From: a virus
Taxonomy: Duplodnaviria; Heunggongvirae; Uroviricota; Caudoviricetes
Virus record (IMG/VR): IMGVR_UViG_3300027710_000009
DNA: 64,000 nt
Direction: 5' to 3' (one strand)
Of this stretch, positions 11,801 through 56,776 are shown one piece after another. The notes beneath the pieces were generated by a model. The model was not told the DNA's origin. It saw nothing but the letters and a program-made list of their open reading frames with translations, and did not search any database. The translations under genes were made by a program, and so were the position numbers. Numbering within the stretch: position 1 is the stretch's first letter; the number at the start of each line of letters is the position of its first letter.

Positions 11801-11932
11801 AAGAATAACTCCTCGAGTCACGTTGGTTATCAGCAGTAGCTTGTATTGGTCTTGTTTTCCTTCGACCACTACATAACCAACACCGGCTGCTCCGGGGGTG
11901 AAACTATACTTCCTAAGTTGCTTTTTTGCCAT
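8834..11932 (-). CDS. Large virion structural protein (1032 aa), function unknown
   Basis: Long ORF between the fibre genes and in the same orientation. No recognisable catalytic motif. Confidence 0.5.
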   Translation of the reverse strand: MAKKQLRKYSFTPGAAGVGYVVVEGKQDQYKLLLITNVTRGVILYNFADTQNTAVTVTYKPGGIKTTTADSSVVTYDDVPIGSGVVGTAVIQNTPGQGETTIRFDGISTTGHSANDELSIFVEEAYQMVRAWNDFGTDAIERQRVANPQSQIDADFEYGLQATKWQGFELVQQYPSVYEIPGSELNISDITSDNAIPSLITVTTSSGHGMNINDPITVQGIDVNTTGFTRAQGTTILASNTGVTSFTYYAKGQVTPLAGAGTSIISPRIIIRKGGFFSGANLSVSQFTSNNGTPSSVTITFGSSHGFVPGMPLLIGGDPAFNSNQFTNLIGSYYANSIPTPSTVEFTARGLVNIPSTVAPNGSNLLTVYTRNDGFFTHRPGDGGVLMGTASAIHGASTTRQSKKYFRYQSGKGLLYTTGVLFAPNYDITSIVITNPPAQGAGSAILRITTAIPHGCQIGAVVRVTGCVDSATSSGFNAQYTVLSVESDVQLNVLASQLITGSAADIAGVPKLYMYQWNGACIRTGPHDDANGMFFEYDGQNFNVVKRTSTLQLAGTVTFTPDSNALTGIGSLWTNQLKIGDRVVIKGMVHKVNFITSATSISVTPDYRGATTTSGNYMFKVQEVRVKQADFNYDPADGTGPSGYKMDPNHMQMIGIQFTWYGAGFMDFMVRGSDGNFIILHRMKQNNVNVTASMRSANLPVRYEVNNEASNGVVQLKTIGGLDPASSSCAVSDASFLPDTGFIYMNYELIRYASINRNDLPFPILNSLTRCAAANVFIGGSYRTIHGRPVPQSHASGSGIELVSLTASPNMSHWGSSYIMDGGFDLDRGYAFSYTRASTPITSTQSSAFGIRLAPSASNGLVGDLGVRELLNRAQLLLQNIDVTVGNASVTDGVRSAVQANCVIEANSAILVQGILNPSNYSNNETWTVLNKTATGNQPSFTQIAEVPSFSSGTSAAPGEKIFEFIASPGQLNQLDLTGIKELTQSAVGGRGTFPNGSDSLYITLALYPTGTQPPRIMGNVSLTLRWNEAQA

Positions 11933-20229: not shown

Positions 20230-20559
20230 TTAGACGCTGAAACTGCTACCGCAACCACATGAAGTTTGCGCATTAGGGTTGATTATCTTGAATTCTGCCC
20301 CCATGAGATCTTCCTTATAATCCACTGTAGCCCCTTGTAAGTACTGACTGCTCATACTATCTACCAACAACGGAACACCGTCGAAATCCATAGTAAAGTC
20401 ATCTTCGTTGGTTTCTTCGTCTAGGGTAAAGCCATACTGCATACCCGAACACCCTCCGCCCTGCACAAATATGCGCAGTTTAATCTTGGGATTGTTTTCC
20501 TCGGCCAGGATGTCCCGAATTTTTTCCACTGCACTAGGATTGAGTTCTAGTATATTCAT
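20230..20559 (-). CDS. iscA: Fe-S cluster insertion/carrier protein IscA/ErpA (HesB family)
   Basis: Motifs [15 protein letters not shown] and the C-terminal CGCGSSF are diagnostic. Start refined to the ATG at 20559 (MNILELNPS), which has a GGAGG RBS 8 nt upstream. The longer track ORF is an N-terminal over-extension. Confidence 0.85.
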
Positions 20560-21119
20560 TTGATGCCTCCATATATTCTTCGATTCACAGTTTCCCAGTT
20601 TATAATACGCCATATATTTTTTAAGTATTTGGCCTTGTCTGCTTGATAATCCAGTGCCCAGGCATGTTCCCACCAATCTATTAGCAGTGCAATGTCTTTT
20701 TTGATCTGATGATTTTTGATTGTTTTGATTTCGCCAGATCTGCTGAGATACACCCAGCCTGACCCTTGTATGCTCATGGCTTGTTTTTCCAGTTGTTTTT
20801 GGAAATCAAGATATGTACCAAATTTACGATTGATCAGTTCTGCACTGGCGCCTTCAGGTTTGTTGCCAGACACAGGTGATTGTAGTTGTGTAAAATATAT
20901 GTTGTGTAGAAACGCACCTGCTTCGTTGAAGTCTGCATCGCCTTCGCCGGCATTGTATCGATCAACATAACCTCGATACAACGTGCCGTAGTGATAGTCC
21001 AGGGTATCTTTGGATTTCACAGGATCAAGATCTGTGCGTTTGTAAGGCAATGTTGCCTGCACAAGATCTTTCTTTTCCTTGCTTTCCACAAGTGAAATTA
21101 GTTGTCGTATGGTACTCAT
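20556..21119 (-). CDS. sod: Fe/Mn-family superoxide dismutase
   Basis: Motifs LPY..DLDP, the [13 protein letters not shown] metal-ligand His, and [12 protein letters not shown] (SOD signature D-x-W-E-H-AYY). The ligand residues H26/H81/D/H are conserved. Start is probably MSTIRQL; an alternative ATG lies at 21164. Confidence 0.75.
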
Positions 21120-21123
21120 ACGA

Positions 21124-21345
21124 CTATTTAGTACGATATATGATCCTACCGCGGGACAAATCATACGGGCTCATTTCTAGTTCAACTGTGTCGCCCATGA
21201 GCACTTTGATATTATTTTGGCGTAATTTGCCGCCAAGATACGCAATTATTTTATGTTGGCTATTTTCGAGTGCCACTCGGAATGTAGCATTGGGCAGTAC
21301 TTCTTCTACCACACCAGTTACATTAACAAATCCTTCTTTAGCCAC
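21124..21345 (-). CDS. infA: Translation initiation factor IF-1
   Basis: MAKEGFVNVTGVVEEVLPNATFRVALENSQHKIIAYLGGKLRQNNIKVLMGDTVELEMSPYDLSRGRIIYR aligns along its full length with bacterial IF-1 (S1-like OB fold). Confidence 0.85.
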   Translation of the reverse strand: MAKEGFVNVTGVVEEVLPNATFRVALENSQHKIIAYLGGKLRQNNIKVLMGDTVELEMSPYDLSRGRIIYRTK

Positions 21346-25372: not shown

Positions 25373-25605
25373 TTCAGTATAAAAACCTCTGCGTCTCTTG
25401 CATCTTCAAAGTAAAACAAAAAACCTGCGGTAGGATTCCACTCTGGTCCACGCAACTGATATCTACCAAATCCTGCATACTCATTCACCCAATTGGTCAA
25501 GTCATGACAGTTAGGGCGTTGTTTCAGCATGCGTTCCCAAGGCATAAACACCTGTGTCCAGTGTGCAGGAAACGGCAAGCTGTCATCCTTGATCATGACG
25601 ATCAT
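25363..25605 (-). CDS. LKW-tail family small protein (member 6; ends FILKWL)
   Basis: C-terminus FLFYFEDARDAEVFILKWL. Confidence 0.55.
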   Translation of the reverse strand: MIVMIKDDSLPFPAHWTQVFMPWERMLKQRPNCHDLTNWVNEYAGFGRYQLRGPEWNPTAGFLFYFEDARDAEVFILKWL

Positions 25606-26041
25606 GCATGGTTACTCCATTCAAGTGATCCAGCTCATGCTGATAGCACACAGCGGCAAGTTCTTCTAGTTCTTCTTCATGCCAGTCACCGTGTATGTCT
25701 TGATATCTGGCCCAGATCTTTCTTGGACGATGTGTAAGTACATATTCATCGGGAAAACTTAAACAACCTTCCTGGCATTCAAACAGTTGATCTGTTGTGG
25801 CATCAGAAAATTCAGGATTGAAACAGGTCCTGGTCAATCCGTTAACACTCATCACAAACACTCTGCGGCTGATGCCTACCTGTGGTGCAGCCAAGCCAAT
25901 TGCATCACTGTCAGTCATAAACTGGTGCATCATGGTGGCCAAGCGCATGAGTGGCCGTGCATCCTCAAAGGTGACAGGCTTGGCAACATTTTTTAACACA
26001 CGATGTGTGAGTTTGAGTTTGTTAGGTATAATCATAGCCAT
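25583..26041 (-). CDS. def: Peptide deformylase
   Basis: All three PDF motifs are present: GLAAPQVG, EGCLSFP and HELDHLNG. Confidence 0.9.
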   Translation of the reverse strand: MAMIIPNKLKLTHRVLKNVAKPVTFEDARPLMRLATMMHQFMTDSDAIGLAAPQVGISRRVFVMSVNGLTRTCFNPEFSDATTDQLFECQEGCLSFPDEYVLTHRPRKIWARYQDIHGDWHEEELEELAAVCYQHELDHLNGVTMHDRHDQG

Positions 26042-31598: not shown

Positions 31599-32390
31599 TT
31601 ATTTAGGCATCATCAATGCGTTGAAGTTTGAGGGCACCACAATGGTCTGCACTTGACCGTTCTTGATACCTTCTGAGATGTTCAACATGGCCTGTGCTTG
31701 CATGAATGCAATACTTGCACCTGAGTTGTTGGCCAGTGCTGCCATACGACGCGATTCGGCTTCAGCAGTTTTGACTTCAACTTCCTTCTGCTTCAATTCG
31801 TTCTTTGAACGAACCAATGCGTTAGCACTTTCAACCACAGAGTCAGCTGGCACAACATTACGAATCAACACTTGGCTGATCATAATAGTACCGTCTAACT
31901 TTTCTTCAGCCAAGTTGCGAACAATCTCGTCTTGGATGAACTTTTCCATTTCACCGCGATTGTCGGCCATGTCCAAGGCCTCATACTTACGAGCGGCTTT
32001 GTAGATAGCGTTACGAGCATTTTGTACAATGTAGTTGTACATCACATAGGTATCACCTTTGAACTCAGCGTGGAATGCTTTGTTCTTGGTTGCGTACAAT
32101 TCACTGACCTGCTGTGGATTGATGTTGTAAACAACCACTGCATCAAAGTCTTTCATGGTTGAGTTGTCTTTGGCCACAGGAGTCATGTTCTCTAATGTGA
32201 CATTCACGTCCTTGATAGGAAATGTGAGCACATCACCGATCAACACTTGATTGAATGAGCCAGGCATGAGTTCGCCTGGCTGAACCTGGCGGTCAAAACC
32301 AACTCGCACACCAACTTCACCCGTTTCAATACGAGTACAACCTGTTGCCAACACAGCCGCGGCAAGAACGGAAAGAGTCAAAATACGCAT
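31599..32390 (-). CDS. SPFH/band-7 (prohibitin/HflKC-like) lipoprotein
   Basis: Lipoprotein signal MRILTLSVLAAAVLATGC. The C-terminal coiled coil LVRSKNELKQKEVEVKTAEAESRRMAA is typical of the SPFH domain. Confidence 0.7.
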   Translation of the reverse strand: MRILTLSVLAAAVLATGCTRIETGEVGVRVGFDRQVQPGELMPGSFNQVLIGDVLTFPIKDVNVTLENMTPVAKDNSTMKDFDAVVVYNINPQQVSELYATKNKAFHAEFKGDTYVMYNYIVQNARNAIYKAARKYEALDMADNRGEMEKFIQDEIVRNLAEEKLDGTIMISQVLIRNVVPADSVVESANALVRSKNELKQKEVEVKTAEAESRRMAALANNSGASIAFMQAQAMLNISEGIKNGQVQTIVVPSNFNALMMPK

Positions 32391-34858: not shown

Positions 34859-36166
34859 TCATAACTTTTCACCCACTGCAAAACCACGGAAGCCTTTGAA
34901 TCGCGGAAAGCGCAGGCTCCACGCACCGTCGCTGTCTTGATTCTGTGTTGCGGCATCTGCACGAACTTCAACTATGCTACCCAACACTTGAGCTTGGCTA
35001 CCCCAGATTGTTTCACGCAAGGCATCAGTAAGACCCGAGCCCACATTGGTACGGATAGTCTTACCGTCATCCACACCTTCCACAATCAAGGCACCCAGTT
35101 TGCCTGCGTTCTTGCCTGTGCCTTCTTCAAAGCCAACCACGGTCAAGCTCACTTCAATAAAAGGCTTTTGCTTGAGCCAGGCCACTGTGCGTTTGGTTTC
35201 GTAACGTGCTTCTGGATCTTTGATCATGATACCTTCGAAGCCGCCTGCCACTGCTTGCGTATTGATCATTTTGAAGCGAGCCAAACCTTTTGCAGTATCC
35301 AAGTCCACTAGCTCTTGTCCTACCACAGTGACATCTGGCATGTGTGCTTCAATGCTGTCGTACCAGGCTCGTAGTGTAGTGCTACGATCAATTTGACGTT
35401 GCTCACCTACGCCTGCTTGGAACTCACGCAGGGTCAACATGTCAAACAAGTTCAACATGGCGTCATTGGCTTTGACATCACTCTTGCGATGCACTTGCTT
35501 CATCAAGTCTTGAAAACTTGCACTCATAATCTCACCGTCCAAGACCATGGGTTCTGCAAACAGTGAGGCATGTTTGGCCAGTTGTTGTTTCACATGCGGA
35601 AAGTTGACCAGTTCTTTGCCATTGCGGCTGTACTGATCTACTTGTCCATTTGGGTACACAATAGTAATCACACGCACACCGTCCAGCTTGACTTCAATCA
35701 GCTTTTCACCTGTGACCTTGCTTTCATGATTGGCACCGTCATGTGCCAGTTGGCAAGAGAACACAGGCACATGATAACGTTCGTGGGCATGTTTGTTGAT
35801 TGTGCTGTCGCTGGTACCACAGCGCATGTCCTTGATTAGGATGCGTCGATACCACATGTTCCATTCTGCTTCTGTGGCGTCCTGGCGCATGACATTGATT
35901 TCAGTTTGTGCGGCATTGCCAGTGAGTCGGCGCTCACTCAATTCCTGTGCCACACGCCAGAAACGTTCTGCTTTTAATCCCTTGCCGTCGCCTGTCTTGG
36001 GCTCTACCTTTTTAACACCAAAGGTGATCATGGCATCATATGCGGCACGGAAGCCACGGAACAGTTCATCGTTGCCGTTTTCGCTTTCACGACGAACCAC
36101 TGCTTCTTTGATCAAGCGGCTGTTGTCGCCTTCCAGCTCTGCAATTACTTCCCATGGTTTAAGCAT
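34859..36166 (-). CDS. ATP-dependent DNA ligase
   Basis: KLDGVR adenylation motif I, EGIMIK motif IV, and a C-terminal OB fold carrying FPRF. Start refined to MLKPWEVIAELEG at 36166. Confidence 0.85.
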   Translation of the reverse strand: MLKPWEVIAELEGDNSRLIKEAVVRRESENGNDELFRGFRAAYDAMITFGVKKVEPKTGDGKGLKAERFWRVAQELSERRLTGNAAQTEINVMRQDATEAEWNMWYRRILIKDMRCGTSDSTINKHAHERYHVPVFSCQLAHDGANHESKVTGEKLIEVKLDGVRVITIVYPNGQVDQYSRNGKELVNFPHVKQQLAKHASLFAEPMVLDGEIMSASFQDLMKQVHRKSDVKANDAMLNLFDMLTLREFQAGVGEQRQIDRSTTLRAWYDSIEAHMPDVTVVGQELVDLDTAKGLARFKMINTQAVAGGFEGIMIKDPEARYETKRTVAWLKQKPFIEVSLTVVGFEEGTGKNAGKLGALIVEGVDDGKTIRTNVGSGLTDALRETIWGSQAQVLGSIVEVRADAATQNQDSDGAWSLRFPRFKGFRGFAVGEKL

Positions 36167-36527
36167 TTTGAACCTCTTCGATGTGGCGGCAAGCACCGCG
36201 GAATTTGAAACCAGCACAAGTGCAATTATACACTGAACCATCTTTTTCTACAACATATTTGGCGCCTTTGCTACCCTCAATGGTCCAGGTTGGGTTGGCA
36301 CTGACCTCAACTTTTGTATCAGTCCAGTTGTAGATGTCATTGCGCACTTCCACAAACTTGCGTCCGCGGGTGTCAATTTGAATTGGTGCTCGGAATGTCT
36401 GAGTGTCTTTGGGATTACCAAAACGAGCATAGGCATGCATCTTGTTTCGGGCATCATCCATCCAGTACACATGATTGCAGTTGAACTGGGTATCTGCCCA
36501 TTCTGTAATTTCTAAAAATGCTTTCAT
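36159..36527 (-). CDS. SWIM zinc-finger protein
   Basis: The C-terminal CTCAGFKFRGACRH matches the SWIM signature C-x-C-x(n)-C-x-H. Confidence 0.55.
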   Translation of the reverse strand: MKAFLEITEWADTQFNCNHVYWMDDARNKMHAYARFGNPKDTQTFRAPIQIDTRGRKFVEVRNDIYNWTDTKVEVSANPTWTIEGSKGAKYVVEKDGSVYNCTCAGFKFRGACRHIEEVQNA

Positions 36528-36554
36528 GCGCCGTTTCCTTAGTGTCTAGCATAC

Positions 36555-36583
36555 AGTATAACAAAATGAGCCATTTAGGTCAA
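36555..36583 (-). promoter_or_regulatory. Sigma70 early promoter, cassette copy (TTGACC-N17-TATACT)
   Basis: Minus strand: TTGACCTAAATGGCTCATTTTGTTATACT. A terminator lies immediately upstream. Confidence 0.55.
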
Positions 36584-36594
36584 CCGTTTTTGGC

Positions 36595-36629
36595 CACAAA
36601 AAAACCCTTGATCAACAAGGGTTTTTTCT
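36595..36629. terminator. Bidirectional intrinsic terminator (AAAAAACCCTTG-atcaa-CAAGGGTTTTTT)
   Basis: Perfect 7-bp GC-rich stem flanked by an A-run and a T-run. Confidence 0.6.
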
Positions 36630-36647
36630 AGTACTTTTGTTAACAAA

Positions 36648-36722
36648 TTAACGATTTGCAATGTACATGGTAATTTCGAAGCCGAAACGCATGTCTTGTG
36701 CAGTTGGTGTAGACCATTTCAT
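36648..36722 (-). CDS. PqqA-like 24-aa peptide (RiPP-precursor-like); not in the ORF track
   Basis: Own translation: MKWSTPTAQDMRFGFEITMYIANR. Strong AAGGAG RBS 7 nt upstream. Lies between a sigma70 promoter (36555-36583) and a hairpin terminator (36595-36629). Resembles PqqA (MKW..P....E...G.E.T.Y, with E-x-x-x-Y). Confidence 0.4.
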   Translation of the reverse strand: MKWSTPTAQDMRFGFEITMYIANR

Positions 36723-36840
36723 AATTTTCTCCTTGAATGACATACTGTTGATGTCTTAGTATGTATGAAGATTATACGACAAAAAATGGTCAAATCATAT
36801 CCAGGAAATCATTAATCTTGGCTAGTGAAATTCACGAGGC

Positions 36841-37038
36841 CTACTGTTCAGATCTGCCACTGGTGCAACTGTCATTCCAAAGACCCTGTGCTTGCTTTTT
36901 GTATTCGTACAGCTCAAGTTCATTCTTGTATTCATCTTCGGTGAGACCATGCCAGCCACAACACTTGCCGGTTGGACTACGACCACAACCACATCGGCCA
37001 ATGTCTTCTGGATTGTCTTTTACTCTCACTTGCATCAC
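36841..37038 (-). CDS. Small Cys-rich protein
   Basis: Contains CGCGRSPTGKCCGWHG. Confidence 0.35.
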   Translation of the reverse strand: MMQVRVKDNPEDIGRCGCGRSPTGKCCGWHGLTEDEYKNELELYEYKKQAQGLWNDSCTSGRSEQ

Positions 37039-37454
37039 TTGCCTTTTGTTTGCTCAGCAATTATTTTGTATCCTGTACCAGTAGGATGTACACCGTCAGC
37101 ACTCATGTGATTTTTAGGTCGAGCAATGATTGTATCCCCGTACTCTTTAGCAATCCGAACGATTGCATCGTGTGGAATAGGTTTACGATCCTGTCCTGGA
37201 TCAATCCAGTACACACGATCTCCTTTGATCGCTTCGCGCATTTTACGTAGTTCTGCTTCTGTCTTGACACCTTTATGATCATTAGCACCTAGACTGATGA
37301 TAATTGTTTTGGAGGGTTGGTTGGATGCTTTGGAAAGATAGTCCTTGTTCCATTGCCAACTATTCCATCCGCCTTTGCTGTAACTAACACACTCAGGTCT
37401 AGCCTGTGATGTGCCCACTGCTATTGAATCTCCGAGTATCAAACATTCTAACAT
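37035..37454 (-). CDS. SGNH/GDSL-family hydrolase
   Basis: GDSIA block I, GAND block III, and DGVHPT block V. Confidence 0.6.
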   Translation of the reverse strand: MLECLILGDSIAVGTSQARPECVSYSKGGWNSWQWNKDYLSKASNQPSKTIIISLGANDHKGVKTEAELRKMREAIKGDRVYWIDPGQDRKPIPHDAIVRIAKEYGDTIIARPKNHMSADGVHPTGTGYKIIAEQTKGK

Positions 37455-37465
37455 TTTGTCTCCAA

Positions 37466-37975
37466 TTAACTGTTAAGAACTTTAGCAACTGAATTCATAA
37501 CTGATGCAATGCGCCCAATGTCACGAAGTTGTTCCACTGTGTAGCCTTCTGAGTTCTTCAATGTGTCATAGTGTGCCTTAACACAGAAGTGACACTTGCC
37601 CACAATACTTGCGGCCAACGAGAATGCTTCAAAGTTTGCTTTGGTAGTTCCACCATGACTTGCAATAGCATTCATGCGTAACTGTGCTGGCAAACCTTTG
37701 AGTGCGGCATCATCTGCCATTTCAACATAGGGATACCATACGTTGTTCTGTGCCATGATGCTGGCGGCTGTCATTGCTGACTCTGCATGTACAGGAGCAT
37801 CTGCTAAAATTACTGACAGAATTTTGCCATTGCCTGTTGCGGCCAGTGCGGCTACGGCACATCCCATGGCCACATCTGCGTCTAGTGTGCTACGCAGTAA
37901 CACCGCATCTAGATTTAATTTTGTATCTTTGGCGTAGTCTGGTAACGCACCTTTTACTGATTCAATAAAATTCAT
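37466..37975 (-). CDS. AhpD-like / carboxymuconolactone decarboxylase-family protein
   Basis: CHFCVKAH matches the AhpD C-x-x-C-x-x-x-H active-site motif. ATG start at 37975 (MNFIESV); the longer track ORF starts at a TTG. Confidence 0.6.
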   Translation of the reverse strand: MNFIESVKGALPDYAKDTKLNLDAVLLRSTLDADVAMGCAVAALAATGNGKILSVILADAPVHAESAMTAASIMAQNNVWYPYVEMADDAALKGLPAQLRMNAIASHGGTTKANFEAFSLAASIVGKCHFCVKAHYDTLKNSEGYTVEQLRDIGRIASVMNSVAKVLNS

Positions 37976-37976
37976 T

Positions 37977-38189
37977 TTAATATTTTCCAGAAACAAAGTA
38001 TTTTTGCAACACTTCTAGTTTATCTTCATATTCCGCAATGTGCGCAATTTCAGTTTCCACAGCCGCCATCCAGTCAGTGTGATCATGAATGGCCATAGGG
38101 TTGTTCAACATGATCTCCACATTCATTTTGTGCTTGGTCAGTTGTGCTGAAAAGTTTGCTTCCAATGCACTAAGTAATTGTTGTTTCAT
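37977..38189 (-). CDS. Hypothetical protein
   Basis: ORF. Confidence 0.35.
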   Translation of the reverse strand: MKQQLLSALEANFSAQLTKHKMNVEIMLNNPMAIHDHTDWMAAVETEIAHIAEYEDKLEVLQKYFVSGKY

Positions 38190-38369
38190 CTATGCTCCTT
38201 GATAGAAGTTCAGTTCATCTTCTTCAGCAAGTTCTGGGGTGTTCCAAACATTACGATTGTTCCACTCGCGAATACGATCCAATCGTTCCTGTTCTGTCAT
38301 TTCATAACATCTAGGATTACGATCGGGCTGTCGCAATGTTTCAACACCTCGTTGAAATATTTCTAACAT
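38190..38369 (-). CDS. Small hypothetical protein (59 aa; not in the ORF track)
   Basis: Own translation begins MLEIFQRGVETLRQPDRNPRCYEMTEQERLDRIREW. TAATG coupling with ahpC. Coordinates approximate. Confidence 0.3.
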   Translation of the reverse strand: MLEIFQRGVETLRQPDRNPRCYEMTEQERLDRIREWNNRNVWNTPELAEEDELNFYQGA

Positions 38370-38908
38370 TAAAGTGTTTCACCGCCAACTGTACGGTTAC
38401 ATGCACACAGCTCGCCAGTTTGTAACGCATCAAGAACACGAAGTGTTTCTTCTGGGCTACGGCCTACGTTCAAGTTGTTGACTGTAACGTGTTGGATAAC
38501 GTTGTCTGGATCAACGATGAATGTTGCGCGAAGTGCGGCACCTGCTGGAGCATAGAAAACTCCTAATTGATCGATAAGACTCAACTCGCCACGTTGTGTG
38601 TCAGCGAACTGGTTGTGTGTGATTTTCTTCAAATCAGCATGAGCTGTTTGCCAGCTGACTTTACAGAACTCATTGTCTGTTGAACCTGTAAGCAGGACTG
38701 CATCACGGTCGGCAAAGTCACCTGTTAGTTTGTCGTAGGCTACAATTTCTGTAGGGCAAACGAATGTGAAGTCTTTTGGATAGTAAACAATTACCTTCCA
38801 CTTGCCGGGAAAGCTCTCATCTGTAATTTCGAAGAACGCATCTTCTGGCTGTCCAGGCTTGACACCCGTGACTGCGAATTTTTCTAACTTGTGTCCAACT
38901 GTTTTCAT
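38369..38908 (-). CDS. ahpC: Peroxiredoxin (AhpC/TSA family)
   Basis: Peroxidatic-Cys motif FTFVCPTEI, with a thioredoxin-fold alignment along the whole length. Confidence 0.85.
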   Translation of the reverse strand: MKTVGHKLEKFAVTGVKPGQPEDAFFEITDESFPGKWKVIVYYPKDFTFVCPTEIVAYDKLTGDFADRDAVLLTGSTDNEFCKVSWQTAHADLKKITHNQFADTQRGELSLIDQLGVFYAPAGAALRATFIVDPDNVIQHVTVNNLNVGRSPEETLRVLDALQTGELCACNRTVGGETL

Positions 38909-38986
38909 TTTGATTTCCTCTATAACAATGAATTAATGTGTATATTATACACGAACAAAAAAGCTCGTCAAGACTTTTTGGCACAA

Positions 38987-39544
38987 TTAAAATCGTACTG
39001 TGAAGCCTGTCATGACTCCGTCGTAATTAGCATCACCACGAACAGATTCATAGGCAAAGTTGATATCCAAGGTCTTGGACATGTGCAACACATAAACGGC
39101 ACGCCATCCACGTGTGTTGTCATTGTATTGGTCAGCATCAACTGCATTGCGATATCTCCAGCCTAATCTAGCAGTGCCAGGTCCAACGGCCATTCGCACA
39201 CCTGGTTCGGCACTGTAGTAGGCAAACTGATTGCCACCCACAGTTTTGATTCCTAGAGCAGTACGCACATAGGGTGTGATTACAGTGCCAGTGGGCAATA
39301 ACAAACTCGCACCACCTTCCAGTCGATTGATTGCAACTTTGGTAGCATCTGGAATCACAGTTTCAGCAATGGCATCAACAATAACGTTGTCCATGCGATG
39401 ACCCACAACAAACTGATATCCTGTGTCTGTTGCGCCAGTTGGACTTTTTCCAAACATGCTGTTGATGCCAGCAAAGGTCTGGGCTTGTGCAACTCCGGTG
39501 GTGATTGCTAGTAGTAGCAAAACATTTTTTAATTGATTAAACAT
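38987..39544 (-). CDS. Outer-membrane beta-barrel protein (OmpW/OmpA-like), paralogue 1
   Basis: Signal peptide MFNQLKNVLLLLAITTGVAQA, alternating amphipathic beta-strands, and a C-terminal aromatic ...GFTVRF. AGGAAAAC RBS. Confidence 0.6.
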   Translation of the reverse strand: MFNQLKNVLLLLAITTGVAQAQTFAGINSMFGKSPTGATDTGYQFVVGHRMDNVIVDAIAETVIPDATKVAINRLEGGASLLLPTGTVITPYVRTALGIKTVGGNQFAYYSAEPGVRMAVGPGTARLGWRYRNAVDADQYNDNTRGWRAVYVLHMSKTLDINFAYESVRGDANYDGVMTGFTVRF

Positions 39545-39600
39545 AAGTTTTCCTATAAGAACAGGGGCCAAGGCCCCTGTTGTGGTTGAATAGTTCTAGA

Positions 39601-40158
39601 TTAGAACTTGAAACCAACAGCGACGTTGGTAGCATTGTATGTGCTGTCACCGCGAACTTGATCGTAGCCTAGGCCAACAAAGTAGTTCTTGGTCAGTGCA
39701 TACTCAGCACCCAAACGGTATGTACGAGTGGTGTCTGCGTTTGCACTGTCTAGTGCGGCACGATAGCGATAGCCTGCTTTGACACTCAGTGCCGGAGTCA
39801 CCGCATACTTGATGCCTGGCTCCACTGAGTAGTAGGTATAGTTGGCCGAAGTCTTGAACTTCTCACCCACTGCACCACGACCATACACGCTGAACCCAGT
39901 GCCGCCAATTGGTTGCGTGGCTGTTAGGCCACCTTCCAGGCGTGTGTCGCTGAGATCGTTGTCAGTGTTGGTCTTTTGACGTAGACTGAAATCGGCCTTC
40001 AACAGTTGATTGATATCTGTGCCCATGGTTACCTTGGTGGCACGAGCATCTGCTGTACCATCAACGCCGTCACGACCACTGTATTCAACAGAGCCAAAAC
40101 CGCCTGCAAAGGCAGTGCTTGCGGCCAATAGTGCGGCCAATGCGATAAACTTCTTCAT
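39601..40158 (-). CDS. Outer-membrane beta-barrel protein, paralogue 2
   Basis: Signal peptide MKKFIALAALLAASTAFA and a C-terminal ...VGFKF. Same RBS type as paralogue 1. A GC-rich hairpin separates it from paralogue 1. Confidence 0.6.
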   Translation of the reverse strand: MKKFIALAALLAASTAFAGGFGSVEYSGRDGVDGTADARATKVTMGTDINQLLKADFSLRQKTNTDNDLSDTRLEGGLTATQPIGGTGFSVYGRGAVGEKFKTSANYTYYSVEPGIKYAVTPALSVKAGYRYRAALDSANADTTRTYRLGAEYALTKNYFVGLGYDQVRGDSTYNATNVAVGFKF

Positions 40159-40257
40159 TTGAAAATTTCCTTTTTGAAAATGTGCGCTGTTACGCAACAC
40201 ATGGATTATATATGCTGGTTACTACTGATGTCAAATAAAAAGGCACCAAAGCGACTG

Positions 40258-40977
40258 TCATGACCAGTATTTGCTGTTGTCCAAACTGTCCCAGTACTTC
40301 TTGTTGTTGCGGTTAACAAAGTTCTGGACCAAGTACTTGGCCATACCAAAATAGCCCATCTTCTTAAACCTACGGCTGTCTTGTCCAAAATAGTGATTGA
40401 GTATGCTAAACTTTTTTGGGCTGTAGCATCTAGATAGGAAGTAGTCTTCAGAAGTTGACATCTGCTCAGGAAAGCCGCCGTACTCTTCAAACCGGTCTCT
40501 GCGTGTGAGCATGAATGCGCCCACAGCAAATGGACTGAAATGTTTTAGAACGCGATTGATACCGTTGAACACAGCAAAGCCAATGCTGGCACGTTTGTCG
40601 TTGTCATAGCATTTGATGTTCAGCCCTAGTAGATCTAGGTTCTTAGATTCCAATTTGGCTACTGCATCACGAATCGTGTTGACATTGAAGAAGCGAACAT
40701 CAGCATCAATGAACAAGATGTAGGGTGTGGTAACCAAGGCAGCTCCGCGGTTCTTGGCCTGGCTGACTGGACCACCATCAATGATTTCAACATTCAATTT
40801 ACCCTTTAACTTTTGAATCACTTCTCGAGTGTTATCTGTAGAACAGTCTGCAATAATAATTCTAGTACTACCAATCAGTTGATTGCGTAGATGTAATAAC
40901 AAGTATCCAATGTAATTCTCCTCGTTCTTGCAAGGGATCACGATTGTAATTTTTTCACTTAGGATTGTTTCTTGCAT
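40258..40977 (-). CDS. Family-2 glycosyltransferase (GT-A fold)
   Basis: ITIVIPCKNEE in the N-terminal Rossmann region, followed by the FIDADV (DxD) motif. Confidence 0.7.
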   Translation of the reverse strand: MQETILSEKITIVIPCKNEENYIGYLLLHLRNQLIGSTRIIIADCSTDNTREVIQKLKGKLNVEIIDGGPVSQAKNRGAALVTTPYILFIDADVRFFNVNTIRDAVAKLESKNLDLLGLNIKCYDNDKRASIGFAVFNGINRVLKHFSPFAVGAFMLTRRDRFEEYGGFPEQMSTSEDYFLSRCYSPKKFSILNHYFGQDSRRFKKMGYFGMAKYLVQNFVNRNNKKYWDSLDNSKYWS

Positions 40978-40998
40978 TCTGCTACCACCTTGAAATTC

Positions 40999-41883
40999 TT
41001 AAACTTTAGTTGCCACGTGATTGTGTTCAACACCTGCTGGCAGGTCTGTTGATCCGGAAACACCAGCTCTATTTTTCCGGGTTGATCTTGCGGGTCGTTG
41101 ATGTGTACCGCTATTAATATCATCAGCCACATTGTCATGCTCCTTGGTCCAGGTCACAATTTCCCAGCGACCGTCATGATGTTCTACCAGTGCTGTGCAT
41201 GACTCAACCCAGTCGCCGTCATTCATGTATGTGACACCATTGATTTCTTTTATCTCTGCGTGATGTATGTGTCCGCAGATCACACCATCAAAGCCACGCT
41301 TCTTACAGTAGTTGGCCAAGTTCTCTTCAAACTTGAACACAAAGTCTACTGCTTTTTTGACCTTGTGCTTAAGAAACTTGCTAAGGCTAAAGTACCCAAA
41401 ACCCATACGGCGACGAATCCAATTAAATTTATTGTTGAGGTTAAGAACAATGTCATATGCTTTGTCTCCTAAAAATGCTATCCACGGGGCCAGTCTAGTA
41501 ATGCCGTCAAACAAGTCTCCGTGTACCACAAGATAGTGTTTGCCGTCCACACCTATGTGTTCTGTTTGATTGCACACTTCAATAAGGCCAAAGCCAATGC
41601 CCAGGGGTATGAGTGGTCTTAAAAACTCATCGTGATTGCCTGCCACATACACCACACGGGTACCGCGCTTGGCGTGACCCATGACTCTGCGTACCACATT
41701 GGTATGGCTTTGTTTCCATCGCCATTTGTTTTGTTGTATTCGCCATGCGTCAATGATATCCCCTACCATGTAGAGTGTGTCGCATGTGTTGTGTTTGAGA
41801 AAGTTGTTGAGTTGCTCTGCCTTGCAATCTCTGGTGCCAAGGTGTACGTCAGAAATAAAAATGCTACGATAAGTTTTCTGCAT
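40999..41883 (-). CDS. lpxH: UDP-2,3-diacylglucosamine hydrolase LpxH-like metallophosphoesterase
   Basis: Motifs SDVHLG, VGDIID, GNHDE and ICGHIHH match the LpxH order D-x-H...D...N-H...H...H-x-H. Confidence 0.65.
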   Translation of the reverse strand: MQKTYRSIFISDVHLGTRDCKAEQLNNFLKHNTCDTLYMVGDIIDAWRIQQNKWRWKQSHTNVVRRVMGHAKRGTRVVYVAGNHDEFLRPLIPLGIGFGLIEVCNQTEHIGVDGKHYLVVHGDLFDGITRLAPWIAFLGDKAYDIVLNLNNKFNWIRRRMGFGYFSLSKFLKHKVKKAVDFVFKFEENLANYCKKRGFDGVICGHIHHAEIKEINGVTYMNDGDWVESCTALVEHHDGRWEIVTWTKEHDNVADDINSGTHQRPARSTRKNRAGVSGSTDLPAGVEHNHVATKV

Positions 41884-41935
41884 AGCAGTATTTATCGTAG
41901 CATTGTGTTACAAAGATTACAGTTGTGTTACGAAC

Positions 41936-42094
41936 TTAAATCCTTACCAAAGTCCATTTATGTGTAAAAGGTTTGCCTTCGGCCTTGTGTTTCGCAATCT
42001 TGCGGAATTCTTCTTGACGAAGCTCCGCAATCTTTTTGGCATCGTGGTCGACGCAAGCCCTGTACAGTTCAACTAAAAGTTTTTTCTGTTTCAT
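41936..42094 (-). CDS. Small hypothetical protein (52 aa; not in the ORF track)
   Basis: GGAGG RBS. Own translation begins [29 protein letters not shown]. Coordinates approximate. Confidence 0.3.
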
Positions 42095-42770: not shown

Positions 42771-43019
42771 TTACTCGTCCTTGGATTGTCGTTTTTTGAT
42801 CTTCATTCCTACAAAGGTTCCACAGAATGCTCCTATCATGGCAGGAATAAGCAGCCAATGATTTGTGGTATAACTGATAACTGCAACACTACCAAGTAGG
42901 TAACAGGCCACGCTCCAGAAACTGGCGCCCATCACATTATCTTTTGCAACACATCTTAGATAGTAGGTGTACACAACGTCAAGAAAAAATATAGAAAAAA
43001 ATGTTATTATGTAATTCAC
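42771..43019 (-). CDS. Hypothetical polytopic membrane protein
   Basis: Hydrophobic ORF with a GTG start. Confidence 0.35.
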   Translation of the reverse strand: MNYIITFFSIFFLDVVYTYYLRCVAKDNVMGASFWSVACYLLGSVAVISYTTNHWLLIPAMIGAFCGTFVGMKIKKRQSKDE

Positions 43020-43026
43020 AGAAGTA

Positions 43027-43052
43027 TTAGAAAAGAATGGGCCCGGAGGCCC
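43027..43052 (-). terminator. Intrinsic terminator of the tmRNA gene
   Basis: Minus-strand GGGCCUCCGGGCCC hairpin followed by AUUCUUUUCU. Confidence 0.6.
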
Positions 43053-43461
43053 ATGGTTGTTTATTTGACAGGGTAAGTCCTACCCCGCTGGTTTCGCTGT
43101 TTAGGCGAAAGCTGCCTCAGTGCGAGCAGACTTGGAACCGCCGAAACGGAAACCTTTGCCTACTGTTACTTTAACACCAGATTGTGTATTTGCTTTTGCA
43201 TTTACTTTTTTTGCGTCTACGGCCGAGTTCCCCCAACCCTACGGTTTCTGCCTTACCGTGCTGTCCACTTGCTTACTCTTTGCCCTGTCGAAACCATGAC
43301 TGGCCCATCATAAAAGGACTAGTGCAAACACTACCAGTACAACAACTACCCCTATCGCCAAACTACCCAGGTTGTCATTCATACCAATCTCCTTATGGTG
43401 GACCAGGCGGGAGTCGAACCCGCGTCCAGAACACTTTTCTATCCGCTTCATACAGCAATAA
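43027..43461 (-). ncRNA. ssrA: Circularly permuted (two-piece) tmRNA gene, organised as acceptor piece, then spacer, then coding piece
   Basis: The 3' end, ...UCUGGACGCGGGUUCGACUCCCGCCUGGUCCACCA at 43396, is nearly identical to the tmRNA 3' end GGACGCGGGUUCAACUCCCGCCAGCUCCACCA. An 89-nt spacer follows. Then GGGCCAGUCAUGGUUUCGACAGGG at 43306 matches the tmRNA 5' end GGGGCUGAUUCUGGAUUCGACGGG. The two form a 7-bp acceptor stem with a G3:U70 pair. Downstream, UAGAC-GCA introduces an open tag frame with no start codon, ending ...TEAAFA-UAA. The gene has its own promoter and terminator. Confidence 0.7.
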
Positions 43462-43466
43462 CTTAC

Positions 43467-43495
43467 AGTATATATTTATTCAGGGGAGTTGTCAA
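43467..43495 (-). promoter_or_regulatory. Sigma70 promoter of the tmRNA gene (TTGACA-N17-TATACT)
   Basis: Minus strand: TTGACAACTCCCCTGAATAAATATATACT. The predicted transcription start is about 65 nt upstream of the CCA end. Confidence 0.55.
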
Positions 43496-46615: not shown

Positions 46616-47461
46616 TTACTTGTTGTCAGTCTGTGCGGCCAATGCGGCCTTAACTGCGGCTTCTACTGCAACACGGATCAAGTCAGCAGTTGCGGTATCA
46701 GTTGCGGCTTCCACTTGCACAGGTGCAATAAAAGCTTCGTCTGGGTGTACACCCAATTCACCAATCACTTCGTAGCGGCAAGCACGACCCTTGGCGTTGT
46801 TGTAGTCAGTTGGGATGCTTACAACATCACGTGGGTTGATCTTAAGGATCACTGTGCGGCTATCGTGACCACCAAAGTGTGGCAAGTACTCTTTGGAGCA
46901 GAAGTGCAAGCCTGCGGAACAGGTACGATTTTGGTCGTCGTCCACTTCGTTGCGTTCCATTTCCACGATCTTGCCAGGACTGTTATCCATAGTACCCGAA
47001 TGGCAGTCCAAGAAGTCCTTGCGAACTTTCTTGTAAGCCAAGAAGTAACCGTCTGGAGTCAAAGGCAAGTTGCCCTTTTCCAAGAAGCCGTACAGTTCTG
47101 TCACAGCTCGCTTGGATGGGTTTTGCATCAAGTTCTCCATGAACAAGATCAGTGGCTCCACTGGAAAACCATCTTGATACATTTCAATCAAGCGGCTTGT
47201 GAGCACACCAGCCATTTCACGTTCTTTGTAGAACACTTTGCTACCTTGGATGGCCACATGGCCTGCACCGTATGCCAGGATCTCCTTGGCAGGGTCAACC
47301 ACCTGCTTCACAGTATCCCAGTCATTGTCCTTGATAGCTTGTTTCAGCTTCTCATATCCAATGTGGGTGGATGTTACGGTATGGGGTTGGTTGTCAATGA
47401 TAACAACAATGTTCTTGCCCTGAATCAGATATGGAAATGCCATTTTAAGCCTCTTTGTCAA
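46616..47461 (-). CDS. rIIB: rIIB-like protein
   Basis: 281 aa, immediately downstream of the rIIA-like gene (16-nt overlap). The blocks FMENLMQNPSKRAV, DGYFLAYKKVRKDF, DCHSGTMDNSPGKIVEM, TCSAGLHFCSKEYL and INPRDVVSIPTDYNNAKGRACRYEV recall T4 rIIB. Confidence 0.7.
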   Translation of the reverse strand: MTKRLKMAFPYLIQGKNIVVIIDNQPHTVTSTHIGYEKLKQAIKDNDWDTVKQVVDPAKEILAYGAGHVAIQGSKVFYKEREMAGVLTSRLIEMYQDGFPVEPLILFMENLMQNPSKRAVTELYGFLEKGNLPLTPDGYFLAYKKVRKDFLDCHSGTMDNSPGKIVEMERNEVDDDQNRTCSAGLHFCSKEYLPHFGGHDSRTVILKINPRDVVSIPTDYNNAKGRACRYEVIGELGVHPDEAFIAPVQVEAATDTATADLIRVAVEAAVKAALAAQTDNK

Positions 47462-49625
47462 TCAAGTTAATGTACTGTGCCACTGCCACCGCATTGATGT
47501 CATAGTCACGCAAACTGCTCAGGAGTGGATAGCGATTACGGATGGCAGTCAATTCATCTGTAAGGCTCTGGACAACCGTGTCTACGTCAACTGGTGTTGC
47601 ATAGTCACGGCACAATTTTTCTAAACTGTACTTGTCAACTTTTGCATCGTCAGCGCCTTTGAACTGAGTCAAAAACTTTGAGTATGCACTGTTGGGCGAT
47701 ACCAGTTTGGTAATATCGTTATTGTAGCGGAAATACTTGTTTGCGTCAATCTGTTTCAGCGCACATTGTCGCACAATTTTTGGATCCAATTTTGCCAAAA
47801 CTTCACGGATATGATCCTGCACATTGATCCAGTTCTTTTGGGTTTCAATGAACTTGATGTCCGATTTACGAACACCCAAGATAGCAATACCATGCAAACC
47901 TGGGATGCCTGATTCAGTAACCATGTCACTGAAGTGACGCATGTTTTGTGTGATAGGCGCACCATTTGATATCACAGTAAAGCCACTGAGTGGCAGGTAG
48001 TAGTAGGTTTCGCTGGCATCAAATTGATCAGCTTTGCCTGCATCCTTCCACACCAGCTCACGTTCTTTGTGATAACCACCGTAGCCACGTTGAGCCAAGC
48101 GCAGGATACTTACATTAGAACCCATACCAGCGCCGCCAGTCTTGCGGTCTTTGAGCATGAGCTCACTGGCTACCATGCATTGGGCCGCAGGAGGATTGCG
48201 CAGGTCTGCAAAGAAGCCAATGGTGTCCATGGTCTTGCCTTTCACAGCAGGACTCAAAACGTACACATTACTGGTATGGCTCTTGCTTGGCAATGCCACA
48301 CCCTTGGCTTCGGCATTGCGCCAGTGATACTTGGCACGGCTTAACGCACCAATTTTGGTATCGTTGGTAACAATGATAGTGCTAGGGTCAATGCTGAATT
48401 CCCACTCTTGCTCGTAACTGCTATGACTCTTGTCGTACACACGCATGGGCTTGAGTTCAGAACAGGTAGCACCACCACGACTCTTTTGGAAAGCCAACAC
48501 TTCAATGTTGTACTTGGCGGCCAAGTCTTTGACATCAAATTTGAACGGCACACCACGCATGTAATGAGTGTTGGTAGTGTCAATCAAATCAAAGTTGGTA
48601 TCCTGTGCATACTTTATGGCCGCACTCTTGAACAAGGTTTCGTTGGCCTTCTTCATCAAGAAGTAGGTCTTGTCCCAGTCGTTGGTGATAAGATCTGCTT
48701 CCAGTGCCACGTGAACAGCCAGCTGGGCATTGAGTGCTTCTAGCTTGTTGCGGATAGCGTTGATGGTCTGTGGAATGTAGCTCAAGCCTTCGCGGCTGGC
48801 TTGGAAGTCCAGTTCGCCAATGTCAAAGTGCATTTCCAAGCCACAGTTCAAGATCTTGTAGAGATCGCCTAGTGCAGATTCTGCATTAGGCACATCAATT
48901 GGATAGGCAATATTGCCCATCACAGCACGGCTGGAACGACTGTCAGTGTAATGCACACCTGGAATGATGTTCTTTTCTTTGTACTCAACGTCACGGAACT
49001 TGAAGTCGCCCTCACCGCCTGATACCACAGGGCGCAGGGCAAAGTAGGTGTACACATGACGAGCTTCGTCTTCAAACTTGTAGAAGTCGCTACGGCTGTC
49101 TACTGCAAACTTGACTTCAACACCTGCAGGTTGGTCAGTAGGCTCTGAGTGCATGAGCACGATGCTGGGCACACCTTCACCATTGATGAACGCACTGTAC
49201 ACACCGCGGGTGCCATCTTTGATAGCAGTCACAGTGAAATTGTCTGTGTAGGAGAAGGGGCTCTTGGAACCCAAGCCCAGGGCACCAATGAACGCATTGG
49301 ATTCAGTCTTGGTTGACTCAAAGTAAGTGGTGTAGATGCTTTGCACTTGTTCGTGAGTAAGGCCAGTGCCGTAGTCACGAATTGAAAAAGTAGGGTCAAT
49401 CACATTGGGCAAGTGTACGTCAAAAGGCACATGACTACGGCCAGCGGCTGTATGTGAGTCTACTGCATTGCAAGAGAGTTCACGCACAATAGCACGGATC
49501 TTGTTTGCGTACAAGCCAGAGGAAAGAATGTTGAAGGCCTTGGCAGAATTGCGAATACGGAACTCGCCAATTTCGCCTACGTTTGACAGAACAGCTTCGT
49601 GGGCTGGTGCATTGTTGATGATCAA
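47445..49625 (-). CDS. rIIA: rIIA-like protein with N-terminal GHKL (HATPase_c) ATPase domain
   Basis: 726 aa, the same size as T4 rIIA. N-box RELSCNAVDS, G1 IRDYGTGLT, G2 GALGLGSKS. Adjacent to rIIB. Confidence 0.7.
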   Translation of the reverse strand: MIINNAPAHEAVLSNVGEIGEFRIRNSAKAFNILSSGLYANKIRAIVRELSCNAVDSHTAAGRSHVPFDVHLPNVIDPTFSIRDYGTGLTHEQVQSIYTTYFESTKTESNAFIGALGLGSKSPFSYTDNFTVTAIKDGTRGVYSAFINGEGVPSIVLMHSEPTDQPAGVEVKFAVDSRSDFYKFEDEARHVYTYFALRPVVSGGEGDFKFRDVEYKEKNIIPGVHYTDSRSSRAVMGNIAYPIDVPNAESALGDLYKILNCGLEMHFDIGELDFQASREGLSYIPQTINAIRNKLEALNAQLAVHVALEADLITNDWDKTYFLMKKANETLFKSAAIKYAQDTNFDLIDTTNTHYMRGVPFKFDVKDLAAKYNIEVLAFQKSRGGATCSELKPMRVYDKSHSSYEQEWEFSIDPSTIIVTNDTKIGALSRAKYHWRNAEAKGVALPSKSHTSNVYVLSPAVKGKTMDTIGFFADLRNPPAAQCMVASELMLKDRKTGGAGMGSNVSILRLAQRGYGGYHKERELVWKDAGKADQFDASETYYYLPLSGFTVISNGAPITQNMRHFSDMVTESGIPGLHGIAILGVRKSDIKFIETQKNWINVQDHIREVLAKLDPKIVRQCALKQIDANKYFRYNNDITKLVSPNSAYSKFLTQFKGADDAKVDKYSLEKLCRDYATPVDVDTVVQSLTDELTAIRNRYPLLSSLRDYDINAVAVAQYINLIDKEA

Positions 49626-56185: not shown

Positions 56186-56776
56186 TTATCGCTTGTCTAG
56201 TACCCGATCTGCAAGCCCGTATGCCACGGCCTCTTGTGCGCTCATGAAGTTGTCACGTTCCATGTCTGCCAAAATTTCATCGTAAGTACGCCCCGCAGTG
56301 TTGTGATCCACGTAGATTTGCGTTAGATTGCGCTTCATTTTGAGGATTTCACGCACCTGGATTTCCATGTCTGTAGCTTGGCCACCAGCACCACCCGAAG
56401 GCTGATGAATCATGTGACGTGCATTGGGCAGTATAAGACGCTTGCCAGCGGCTCCTGCTTGAGCTAGCAAACTGCCCATGGAGCAGGCCTGCCCCATCAC
56501 AATAGTAGATATGTTAGGTCGAATAAACTGCATAGTGTCATAGATAGCCATGCCAGCAGTAACCACCCCACCAGGGCTGTTGATATAGAACAGAATATCT
56601 GCATCTGGATCTTCGCTTTCGAGAAACAATAGTTGAGCCACAATCAAACTAGCAGAATGCTCGTTGACATCTGTGTCTAGCATGACAATACGGTCTTTGA
56701 GCAGGCGACTGTAGAGATCATAACTGCGCTCGCCTGCTGATGTGCGTTCAAGCACCATGGGTACCAAATTTGGCAT
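56186..56776 (-). CDS. clpP: ATP-dependent Clp protease proteolytic subunit ClpP
   Basis: Full-length ClpP with the catalytic triad context GQACSMGS...HQP...D. A perfect sigma70 promoter lies upstream. Confidence 0.9.

Follow-up and report, generated by a model that had tools for sequence, protein, structure and literature searches.

A predicted AhpC/AhpD alkyl hydroperoxide reductase pair encoded in the genomes of large environmental phages

Introduction

In Mycobacterium tuberculosis (Mtb), the peroxiredoxin AhpC and its reductant AhpD are encoded in a two-gene ahpC-ahpD arrangement (structures 2bmx for AhpC, and 1knc and 1gu9 for AhpD). Electrons flow in this system from NADH via Lpd, the lipoamide of DlaT and AhpD to AhpC, and from there to the hydroperoxide (PMC12028322). 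Operons with the same gene order are found in Burkholderiales (Burkholderia, Paraburkholderia, Cupriavidus, Ralstonia, Undibacterium, Caldimonas and Piscinibacterium), which are, among the matches listed, the closest cellular relatives of the genes described here, while in Enterobacteria an AhpC with the same typical 2-Cys AhpC/Prx1 fold and chemistry is paired with AhpF, in whose place the phage has AhpD. The subject of this study is an ahpC-ahpD pair that is carried by a virus, namely on the minus strand of the IMG/VR record IMGVR_UViG_3300027710_000009 (Caudoviricetes), of which a stretch of 64,000 nucleotides was analyzed (hereafter, the window; Table 1).

Single antioxidant genes are known from phages. 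A lone peroxiredoxin is listed among the auxiliary genes of cyanophages, as ORF259 of the cyanomyovirus S-SCSM2R (PMC12801897), and virus-encoded ahpC was found in Microcystis viromes from Lake Erie (PMC12542629). Another single phage peroxiredoxin gene is prxU of the Microcystis phage MaAM05. These lone viral enzymes are, like the AhpC described here, thiol peroxidases thought to ease oxidative stress in infection, and they are assumed to depend on thioredoxin or glutaredoxin, whereas the present phage adds a dedicated AhpD partner. The complete combination of enzyme and dedicated reductant is apparently undescribed: in the literature, mentions of lone peroxiredoxins or ahpC were found and no description of a phage ahpCD pair, PHROGs contains no real AhpD family, and the reference phage genomes (INPHARED) hold no AhpD homolog except in one UNVERIFIED Ralstonia record, the pair of which looks bacterial. 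IMG annotation pipelines already label such metagenomic genes as 'alkyl hydroperoxide reductase subunit D' or 'lipoyl-dependent peroxiredoxin'.

The phage genes encode AhpC and AhpD of the M. tuberculosis type

The pair is read here as an alkyl hydroperoxide reductase of the M. tuberculosis/Burkholderiales type that has two components, is functional and would lower peroxide in the infected cell; this reading is given a probability of about 0.72. It extends an initial sequence-only reading of the window, in which an AhpC/TSA peroxiredoxin had been recognized by the stretch FTFVCPTEI and an AhpD-family protein by a C-x-x-C-x-x-x-H motif (CHFCVKAH), and which had named searches with the Pfam families PF00578 and PF02627 as a check. 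Both proteins score above the gathering scores of their families.

The AhpC protein matches PF00578 over residues 5–140 (E = 2e-19; 70.2 bits against a cut-off of 26). FTFVCPTEI corresponds to residues 47–55 and contains the peroxidatic Cys51 within P44-x3-T48-x2-C51; Arg127 is present as well. In the C-terminal tail (ELC168AC170N), the resolving Cys168 is followed by an additional Cys170, and this tail aligns with ELC174A(C/S)176N of Mtb AhpC, which likewise has three cysteines (Cys61, Cys174 and Cys176) including the ELCACN tail, while the phage protein is without approximately 10 N-terminal residues and the C-terminal extension of its Mtb counterpart. The best sequence match in the PDB is Mtb AhpC (2bmx; E = 9.5e-43, 51% identity), with eukaryotic Prx3 (2e-29) and other peroxiredoxins following far behind. 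Across 89 phage and 74 bacterial copies, T48, C51, R127, C168 and C170 do not vary. No ahpF gene is adjacent to ahpC, which is instead followed downstream by ahpD.

For AhpD, the ATG at 37975 is taken as the start, because the TTG at 37996 chosen by the open reading frame (ORF) finder overlaps the preceding ORF; read from this ATG, residue 4 aligns with residue 3 of Mtb AhpD and the length matches that of relatives of 168–169 residues. The protein matches PF02627 (E = 1.7e-8, 34.8 bits against a cut-off of 23) and positions 2–169 of the 177-position TIGR00777 model 'ahpD' (E = 9e-34, at a score below the curated cut-off, as discussed below), and its sequence matches in the PDB are exclusively Mtb AhpD (1gu9/1knc) and mutants thereof (E = 1.4e-23, 39% identity). 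CHFCVKAH spans residues 128–135, providing Cys128-His-Phe-Cys131 and His135, so that E116, C128, C131 and H135 align with Glu118, Cys130, Cys133 and His137 of Mtb AhpD; none of the four varies among 95 phage and 75 bacterial copies. In the phage and Burkholderiales proteins, which share a C-H-x-C-x-x-x-H motif, the conserved histidine within the cysteine pair (His129) lies one residue earlier than in Mtb AhpD.

An AlphaFold2 model of AhpD (shallow alignment) has a pTM of 0.68 and a confidence of 75–92 in the active-site half. The 12 best Foldseek matches to this model are all Mtb AhpD chains (template modeling (TM) score 0.70–0.72, E ~4e-7), with a TM score of 0.71 to 1knc against at most ~0.5 for other proteins of the carboxymuconolactone decarboxylase (CMD) fold, and the phage protein is thus predicted to have the all-helical AhpD fold. 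Since the best PDB matches are 2bmx and 1gu9/1knc, and the best fold match of AhpD is 1knc, the pair is assigned to the Mtb type. The sequence-only reading, which would have been abandoned had a predicted structure lacked the Cys/His geometry or had homology to the named families been undetectable, is supported as essentially correct: the residues align with those of Mtb AhpD, the model matches 1knc, and Pfam, NCBIfam and PDB matches were all obtained.

Conservation of the pair across related phages

With AhpD as query, 6425 protein clusters were retrieved from a large protein collection, the best 120 of which are 87–98% identical, and close AhpD homologs are present on at least 595 IMG/VR viral contigs, some of which reach 353 kb. 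Gene order is constant. In all of the 89 AhpD-centered phage loci that hold both genes whole, ahpC is located upstream of ahpD on the same strand, and ahpD follows ahpC in 77 of 79 AhpC-centered viral loci, the remaining two of which end 9 and 817 nt past ahpC. The distance between the genes varies from −4 to 2380 nt in the 89 loci (≤15 nt in 31, 16–250 nt in 14, 251–700 nt in 28, 701–1500 nt in nine and >1500 nt in seven), and the inserts are small phage ORFs or an SGNH-like hydrolase gene. Neighboring genes in example related contigs are phage-like (rIIB, Cpn10, NAMPT, NUDIX and DUF6267).

Relative to the copy in the window, the median ratio of nonsynonymous to synonymous substitution (dN/dS) is 0.06 for ahpC and 0.05 for ahpD, values that are approximate because dS (~1.1–1.2) is near saturation. 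Synonymous change clearly dominates in the phage genes, which are under strong purifying selection.

Origin of the pair

Cellular relatives were sought in GTDB, with one genome per species and with a scan seeded by peptide patterns of the query; because of this seeding, and because only part of the matches are listed, the scan is biased toward the closest relatives. Among the matches listed, the true cellular relatives are almost all Burkholderiales (AhpD 48–60%, AhpC 62–68% identity), and in the listed bacteria ahpD always follows immediately after ahpC. An unbiased tblastn search of plasmids and secondary replicons is in agreement, with Cupriavidus and Ralstonia at 51–52% identity and Actinobacteria and Alphaproteobacteria at 35–37%. 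The Burkholderiales genes are directly adjacent (13–380 nt apart) and G+C-rich, whereas the phage copies are often split by phage ORFs. In a concatenated neighbor-joining tree, phage and bacterial copies separate cleanly and the phage copies form one clade. Their G+C content at third codon positions (GC3) is 0.38 (0.29–0.30 in divergent copies), as in the rest of the phage, compared to 0.81–0.84 for the bacterial copies. The simplest reading of these comparisons would be a single old transfer of the whole operon from a Burkholderiales-like bacterium, followed by adaptation to the base composition of the phage. Such an origin does not identify the host.

The GTDB matches at 55–88% identity are short contigs of metagenome-assembled genomes (MAGs) from unrelated phyla (L090–L094 and L103), labeled Haliscomenobacter, Hydrogenophaga, Beijerinckiaceae, Acidimicrobiaceae, Fischerella and Bacteroidota, which carry ahpCD of the phage type (AhpD 51–88% identical). 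Their flanks also match phage loci, with a strong match in L090 and short, scattered matching segments in the other contigs, and all are probably phage contigs that were mis-binned into bacterial genomes. They were rejected as evidence for a host on both grounds, the unrelated phyla and the phage-like flanks. The record 'Ralstonia phage YO375_1' was likewise rejected as a phage precedent and treated as bacterial DNA: it is UNVERIFIED, its pair lies ~1.5 kb from the record end, and only the ahpCD stretch and one 120-nt segment resemble phage loci.

Organization and putative expression of the gene array

In the window, the sequence-only reading had placed ahpC approximately 500 nt upstream of ahpD; the order held, while the distance is 393 nt and is filled by two small ORFs of 59 and 70 residues, unrelated to the pair. 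Orf59 has no Pfam, NCBIfam or PHROG match, and protein-level homologs (57–91%) are found between ahpC and ahpD in nine related phage loci. Orf70 begins right after the orf59 stop (TAG then ATG) and ends 1 nt before the ahpD start (TAA-A-ATG), with homologs at the equivalent position in four related loci. An SGNH-like hydrolase gene starts 11 nt past the ahpD stop, with GGAG in the spacer. Its product scores 24.6 bits with PF00657 (cut-off 23.6) and 32.3 bits with PF13472, which is below the cut-off of 32.9, and a PDB sequence search with it returned nothing useful. The hydrolase gene is repeatedly linked to the phage pair: in some 40–50% of related phage loci it lies either inside the pair or immediately behind ahpD. 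It is absent beside the bacterial ahpCD operons examined, including those of Burkholderiales.

All ORFs of the array ahpC-orf59-orf70-ahpD-SGNH hydrolase overlap or are 0–11 nt apart, and a terminator scan of this strand found no terminator between the genes, the sole match lying inside the ahpC coding sequence. In front of ahpC, the −10 hexamer of a sigma70-like promoter ends 36 nt before the ATG, and we infer that the five ORFs may form one transcription unit under host RNA polymerase. Two things support the candidate promoter, its position and the quality of its match; several promoter-like sites of equal quality stand before other genes in the window.

A 15-nt perfect palindrome (GTGTATAATATACAC, 38938–38952), which occurs once in the window, overlaps the −10 box. 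It is not conserved in relatives, which carry another hairpin downstream of the −10 box, and is unsupported as an operator. In the ahpC leaders of related phages (loci L002–L090; 110 nt upstream of ahpC, corresponding to 38909–39018 of the window), a pair of −35/−10-like elements is followed after 3–11 nt by a perfect hairpin of at least 5 bp and then by a CACACACAAGGAG ribosome-binding region. This arrangement is found in 39 of 46 unique sequences, compared to 10 expected from shuffles, with at least 10 distinct stems (TCAGT/ACTGA, CATAGT/ACTATG, AGAACA/TGTTCT, TCAGCACA/TGTGCTGA and others), and it resembles a conserved stem-loop at the mRNA 5′ end with compensatory changes. The ahpC leader of the window has no downstream hairpin and carries the palindrome over the −10 box instead.

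Genomic context

The window is phage DNA: the pair is bordered by phage genes on both sides, all real genes around ahpCD are on the minus strand, and the G+C content is even throughout (0.42–0.49, overall ~0.44). An endonuclease and an ATPase are encoded in addition to the features of Table 1. A megablast search with 36000–42000 against reference phages gave no match at the DNA level, which means that no sequenced phage is closely related to it in this segment. Full-length matches to rIIA are from Stenotrophomonas jumbo phages (~319 kb, 27% identity). Because related metagenomic viral contigs reach 342–353 kb, the window probably derives from a jumbo phage with a genome of roughly 345 kb. Some sample and record names of related phages suggest lakes as a possible habitat.

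Table 1. Positions of the features of the window, all on the minus strand.
Feature	Position	Strand	Description
ahpC	38369-38908	-	179 aa; typical 2-Cys peroxiredoxin, M. tuberculosis AhpC type
orf59	38190-38369	-	start overlaps ahpC stop (TAATG, 1 nt)
orf70	37977-38189	-	phrog_1811 (E = 3.5e-23), PHROG of unknown function
ahpD	37466-37975	-	169 aa; AhpD-family disulfide reductase (predicted)
Small SGNH/GDSL-like hydrolase	37035-37454	-	139 aa; GDS, GAND and DGVH blocks
Sigma70-like promoter (candidate)	38944-38971	-	TTGACG-16 nt-TATAAT; consensus scan, 11/12 matches
Cys-rich ORF	36841-37038	-	65 aa; CGCGRSPTGKCCGWHGL; no family match
122-aa ORF	36159-36527	-	CTCAGFKFRGACRH; C-terminus weakly SWIM zinc-finger-like (PF04434, 17.6 bits, below cut-off)
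ATP-dependent DNA ligase	34859-36241	-	
Band 7/SPFH protein	31599-32390	-	6e-18; host-like housekeeping gene
Peptide deformylase	25583-26041	-	7e-39; host-like housekeeping gene
Translation initiation factor IF-1	21124-21345	-	3e-21; host-like housekeeping gene
Fe/Mn superoxide dismutase (SOD)	20556-21119	-	PF02777 (7e-24), PF00081 (5.5e-9)
IscA/ErpA-type iron-sulfur carrier	20230-20553	-	107 aa; C-terminal CGCGSSF; PF01521 (1.3e-20), phrog_17776 (3.9e-45)
Giant ORF	13341-20174	-	2277 aa; no Pfam match
Virion structural protein	8834-11932	-	phrog_5838 (5.5e-214); ~44% identity to counterpart of Synechococcus phage S-CAM1
Giant ORF	2461-8793	-	2110 aa; YHYH and Ig-like domains
Transfer-messenger RNA (tmRNA)	43171-43457	-	permuted two-piece type; Rfam RF04321, 97 bits (gathering score 47)
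rIIA	47445-49625	-	phrog_612 (8.7e-127)
ClpP protease	56186-56776	-	9e-78, scanned separately; host-like housekeeping gene

The coordinates of the deformylase, IF-1 and Band 7/SPFH genes were paired with their Pfam matches by eye from the translations. For the SOD, the ORF finder gives a longer reading (20556–21164) that begins at an upstream ATG; the protein is 41% identical to sodB of the Pseudomonas jumbo phage PA5oct. The SOD gene adjoins iscA, and a distance of ~16.5 kb that contains many genes and several promoter-like sites separates both from ahpCD. The sequence-only reading had joined SOD, IscA and the pair into an oxidative-stress module. The genes are real, and the phage has a redox-related gene set; because of the distance and the other promoters, however, SOD and IscA are outside the ahpCD unit, so that the set is not one physical or transcriptional module and the proposal holds at most as gene content.

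At the tmRNA, ARAGORN calls a longer feature (43010–43488) with an unusually long tag peptide. Just upstream of ahpC lie two seemingly paralogous ORFs (38987–39571 and 39601–40200, minus strand) with signal-peptide-like N-termini, one of which matches the outer-membrane beta-barrel family PF13505 (4e-8). They are preceded by a perfect TTGACA-18-TATAAT (40234–40205), and weak homologs precede ahpC in a few related loci (L083 and L086).

Proposed mechanism and alternative explanations

By homology to Mtb, electrons would be relayed from NADH via host Lpd, the host lipoyl-E2, AhpD and AhpC to peroxide, although it is in Mtb that DlaT and Lpd serve as the reductant, and the phage counterpart is proposed by homology only. 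Cys51 of AhpC would reduce H2O2, an organic hydroperoxide or peroxynitrite and thereby be converted to a sulfenic acid, with which Cys168 of the partner subunit would form a disulfide, Cys170 being a possible alternate. This disulfide would be attacked by Cys131 of AhpD, and Cys128 would resolve the mixed disulfide. Oxidized AhpD would then regain its electrons from the dihydrolipoamide arm on the E2 subunit of a 2-oxoacid dehydrogenase of the host, and host Lpd would recharge this arm with NADH. For expression, host RNA polymerase would transcribe the five-ORF array from the sigma70-like promoter. The pair may thus keep peroxide low during infection, so that metabolism and phage production continue. 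Along these lines we infer the activity of the pair, its reductant, the timing of its expression (presumably early) and its benefit to the phage.

Several observations weigh against this reading. AhpC scores below the curated cut-off of TIGR03137 (108.4 bits versus 272), and it is not a member of the AhpF-dependent AhpC class that this equivalog describes, while AhpD scores 116.8 with TIGR00777 against a curated cut-off of 191.95 and is a diverged member, which the curated model would not name. The second active-site histidine of Mtb AhpD, His132, is replaced by Phe130 in the phage protein. The AhpD model is of moderate confidence (predicted local distance difference test 67), with residues 74–109 below 50, and dS near saturation blurs the estimate of selection. 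Promoter-like sites in the region are not above chance (eight versus 7.0 in shuffles), and of 89 relatives, only 23 have the strict promoter pattern in front of ahpC. A Pfam scan of 64 ORFs of the window detected no lipoyl protein, Lpd, lipoate ligase, thioredoxin or glutaredoxin, with ~280 kb of the presumed genome outside the window, and therefore the reductant would come from the host or from that part of the genome. Finally, the permuted tmRNA, the G+C content of ~0.44 and the Burkholderiales-like ahpCD do not converge on a single host.

The alternatives differ in which part of this reading they replace. Identical enzymes could serve another purpose, namely blunting a host peroxide signal or a suicide or defence response that depends on reactive oxygen species (e.g., OxyR activation or abortive infection), rather than general protection from environmental peroxide. 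The position of the pair among genes of the host-takeover type behind host-type promoters, and the SOD and Fe-S carrier in the same genome, would fit such a role; nothing in the sequence separates it from general detoxification, and Pfam and PHROG searches identified no defence or counter-defence gene in the operon, so that it is considered unlikely. A different division of labor, in which AhpD is not the reductant of the phage AhpC, is improbable. A thioredoxin or glutaredoxin of host or phage would then recycle AhpC, leaving the CMD-fold protein to act on its own, as a weak hydroperoxidase or with another substrate. Mtb AhpC is also able to use a thioredoxin, which counts for this explanation, as do the TIGR00777 score below its cut-off and the lack of conservation of His132. 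It is opposed by the alignment to Mtb AhpD over the full length, in which CxxC, His and Glu are conserved, by the far poorer match of other CMD-fold proteins to the AhpD model, and by the ahpC-ahpD order, which every complete phage or bacterial locus examined retains despite frequent inserts.

That the genes are bacterial, as host DNA at a prophage edge or in a mis-assembled or mis-binned contig, is very improbable. The UNVERIFIED Ralstonia record, the only one in INPHARED with both genes, would be such a case, with its pair close to the record end. In the window, however, the pair lies between phage genes and resembles the remainder in strand, G+C content and GC3, hundreds of viral contigs of up to 353 kb carry a close AhpD, and even the MAG contigs share flanking genes with phage loci. 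Still further removed is the explanation that the genes are decaying passengers without function, which is scarcely credible given the dN/dS of ~0.05, the invariant catalytic residues and the intact frames in ~90 copies. The reading of the pair as a functional, Mtb-type peroxide-reducing system is preferred to these alternatives.

A more elaborate version of the preferred reading is speculative and rather unlikely as a whole. In this version, AhpD would couple peroxide removal to the lipoylated 2-oxoacid dehydrogenase and Lpd of the host, drawing on NADH and on a complex of central metabolism during infection, and the SGNH-like hydrolase would act as a third component that frees oxidized acyl chains or esters for AhpC. 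If true, the array would form a repair unit of three parts, specific to phages and directed at organic or lipid hydroperoxides, without counterpart beside bacterial ahpCD operons.

Implications for large phages

The chemistry of the pair is ordinary and well known, and its mechanism is not new; the novelty lies in the carrier, namely large phages of a widespread lineage in which both partners are retained. The variable inserts between ahpC and ahpD indicate that phage genomes split acquired operons yet keep both partners, and the system would be a compact case of a virus tapping a host cofactor system, lipoyl-E2/Lpd. Hundreds of large environmental phages retain the pair under strong purifying selection, which would imply that peroxide stress limits phage production often enough to repay the cost of two genes.

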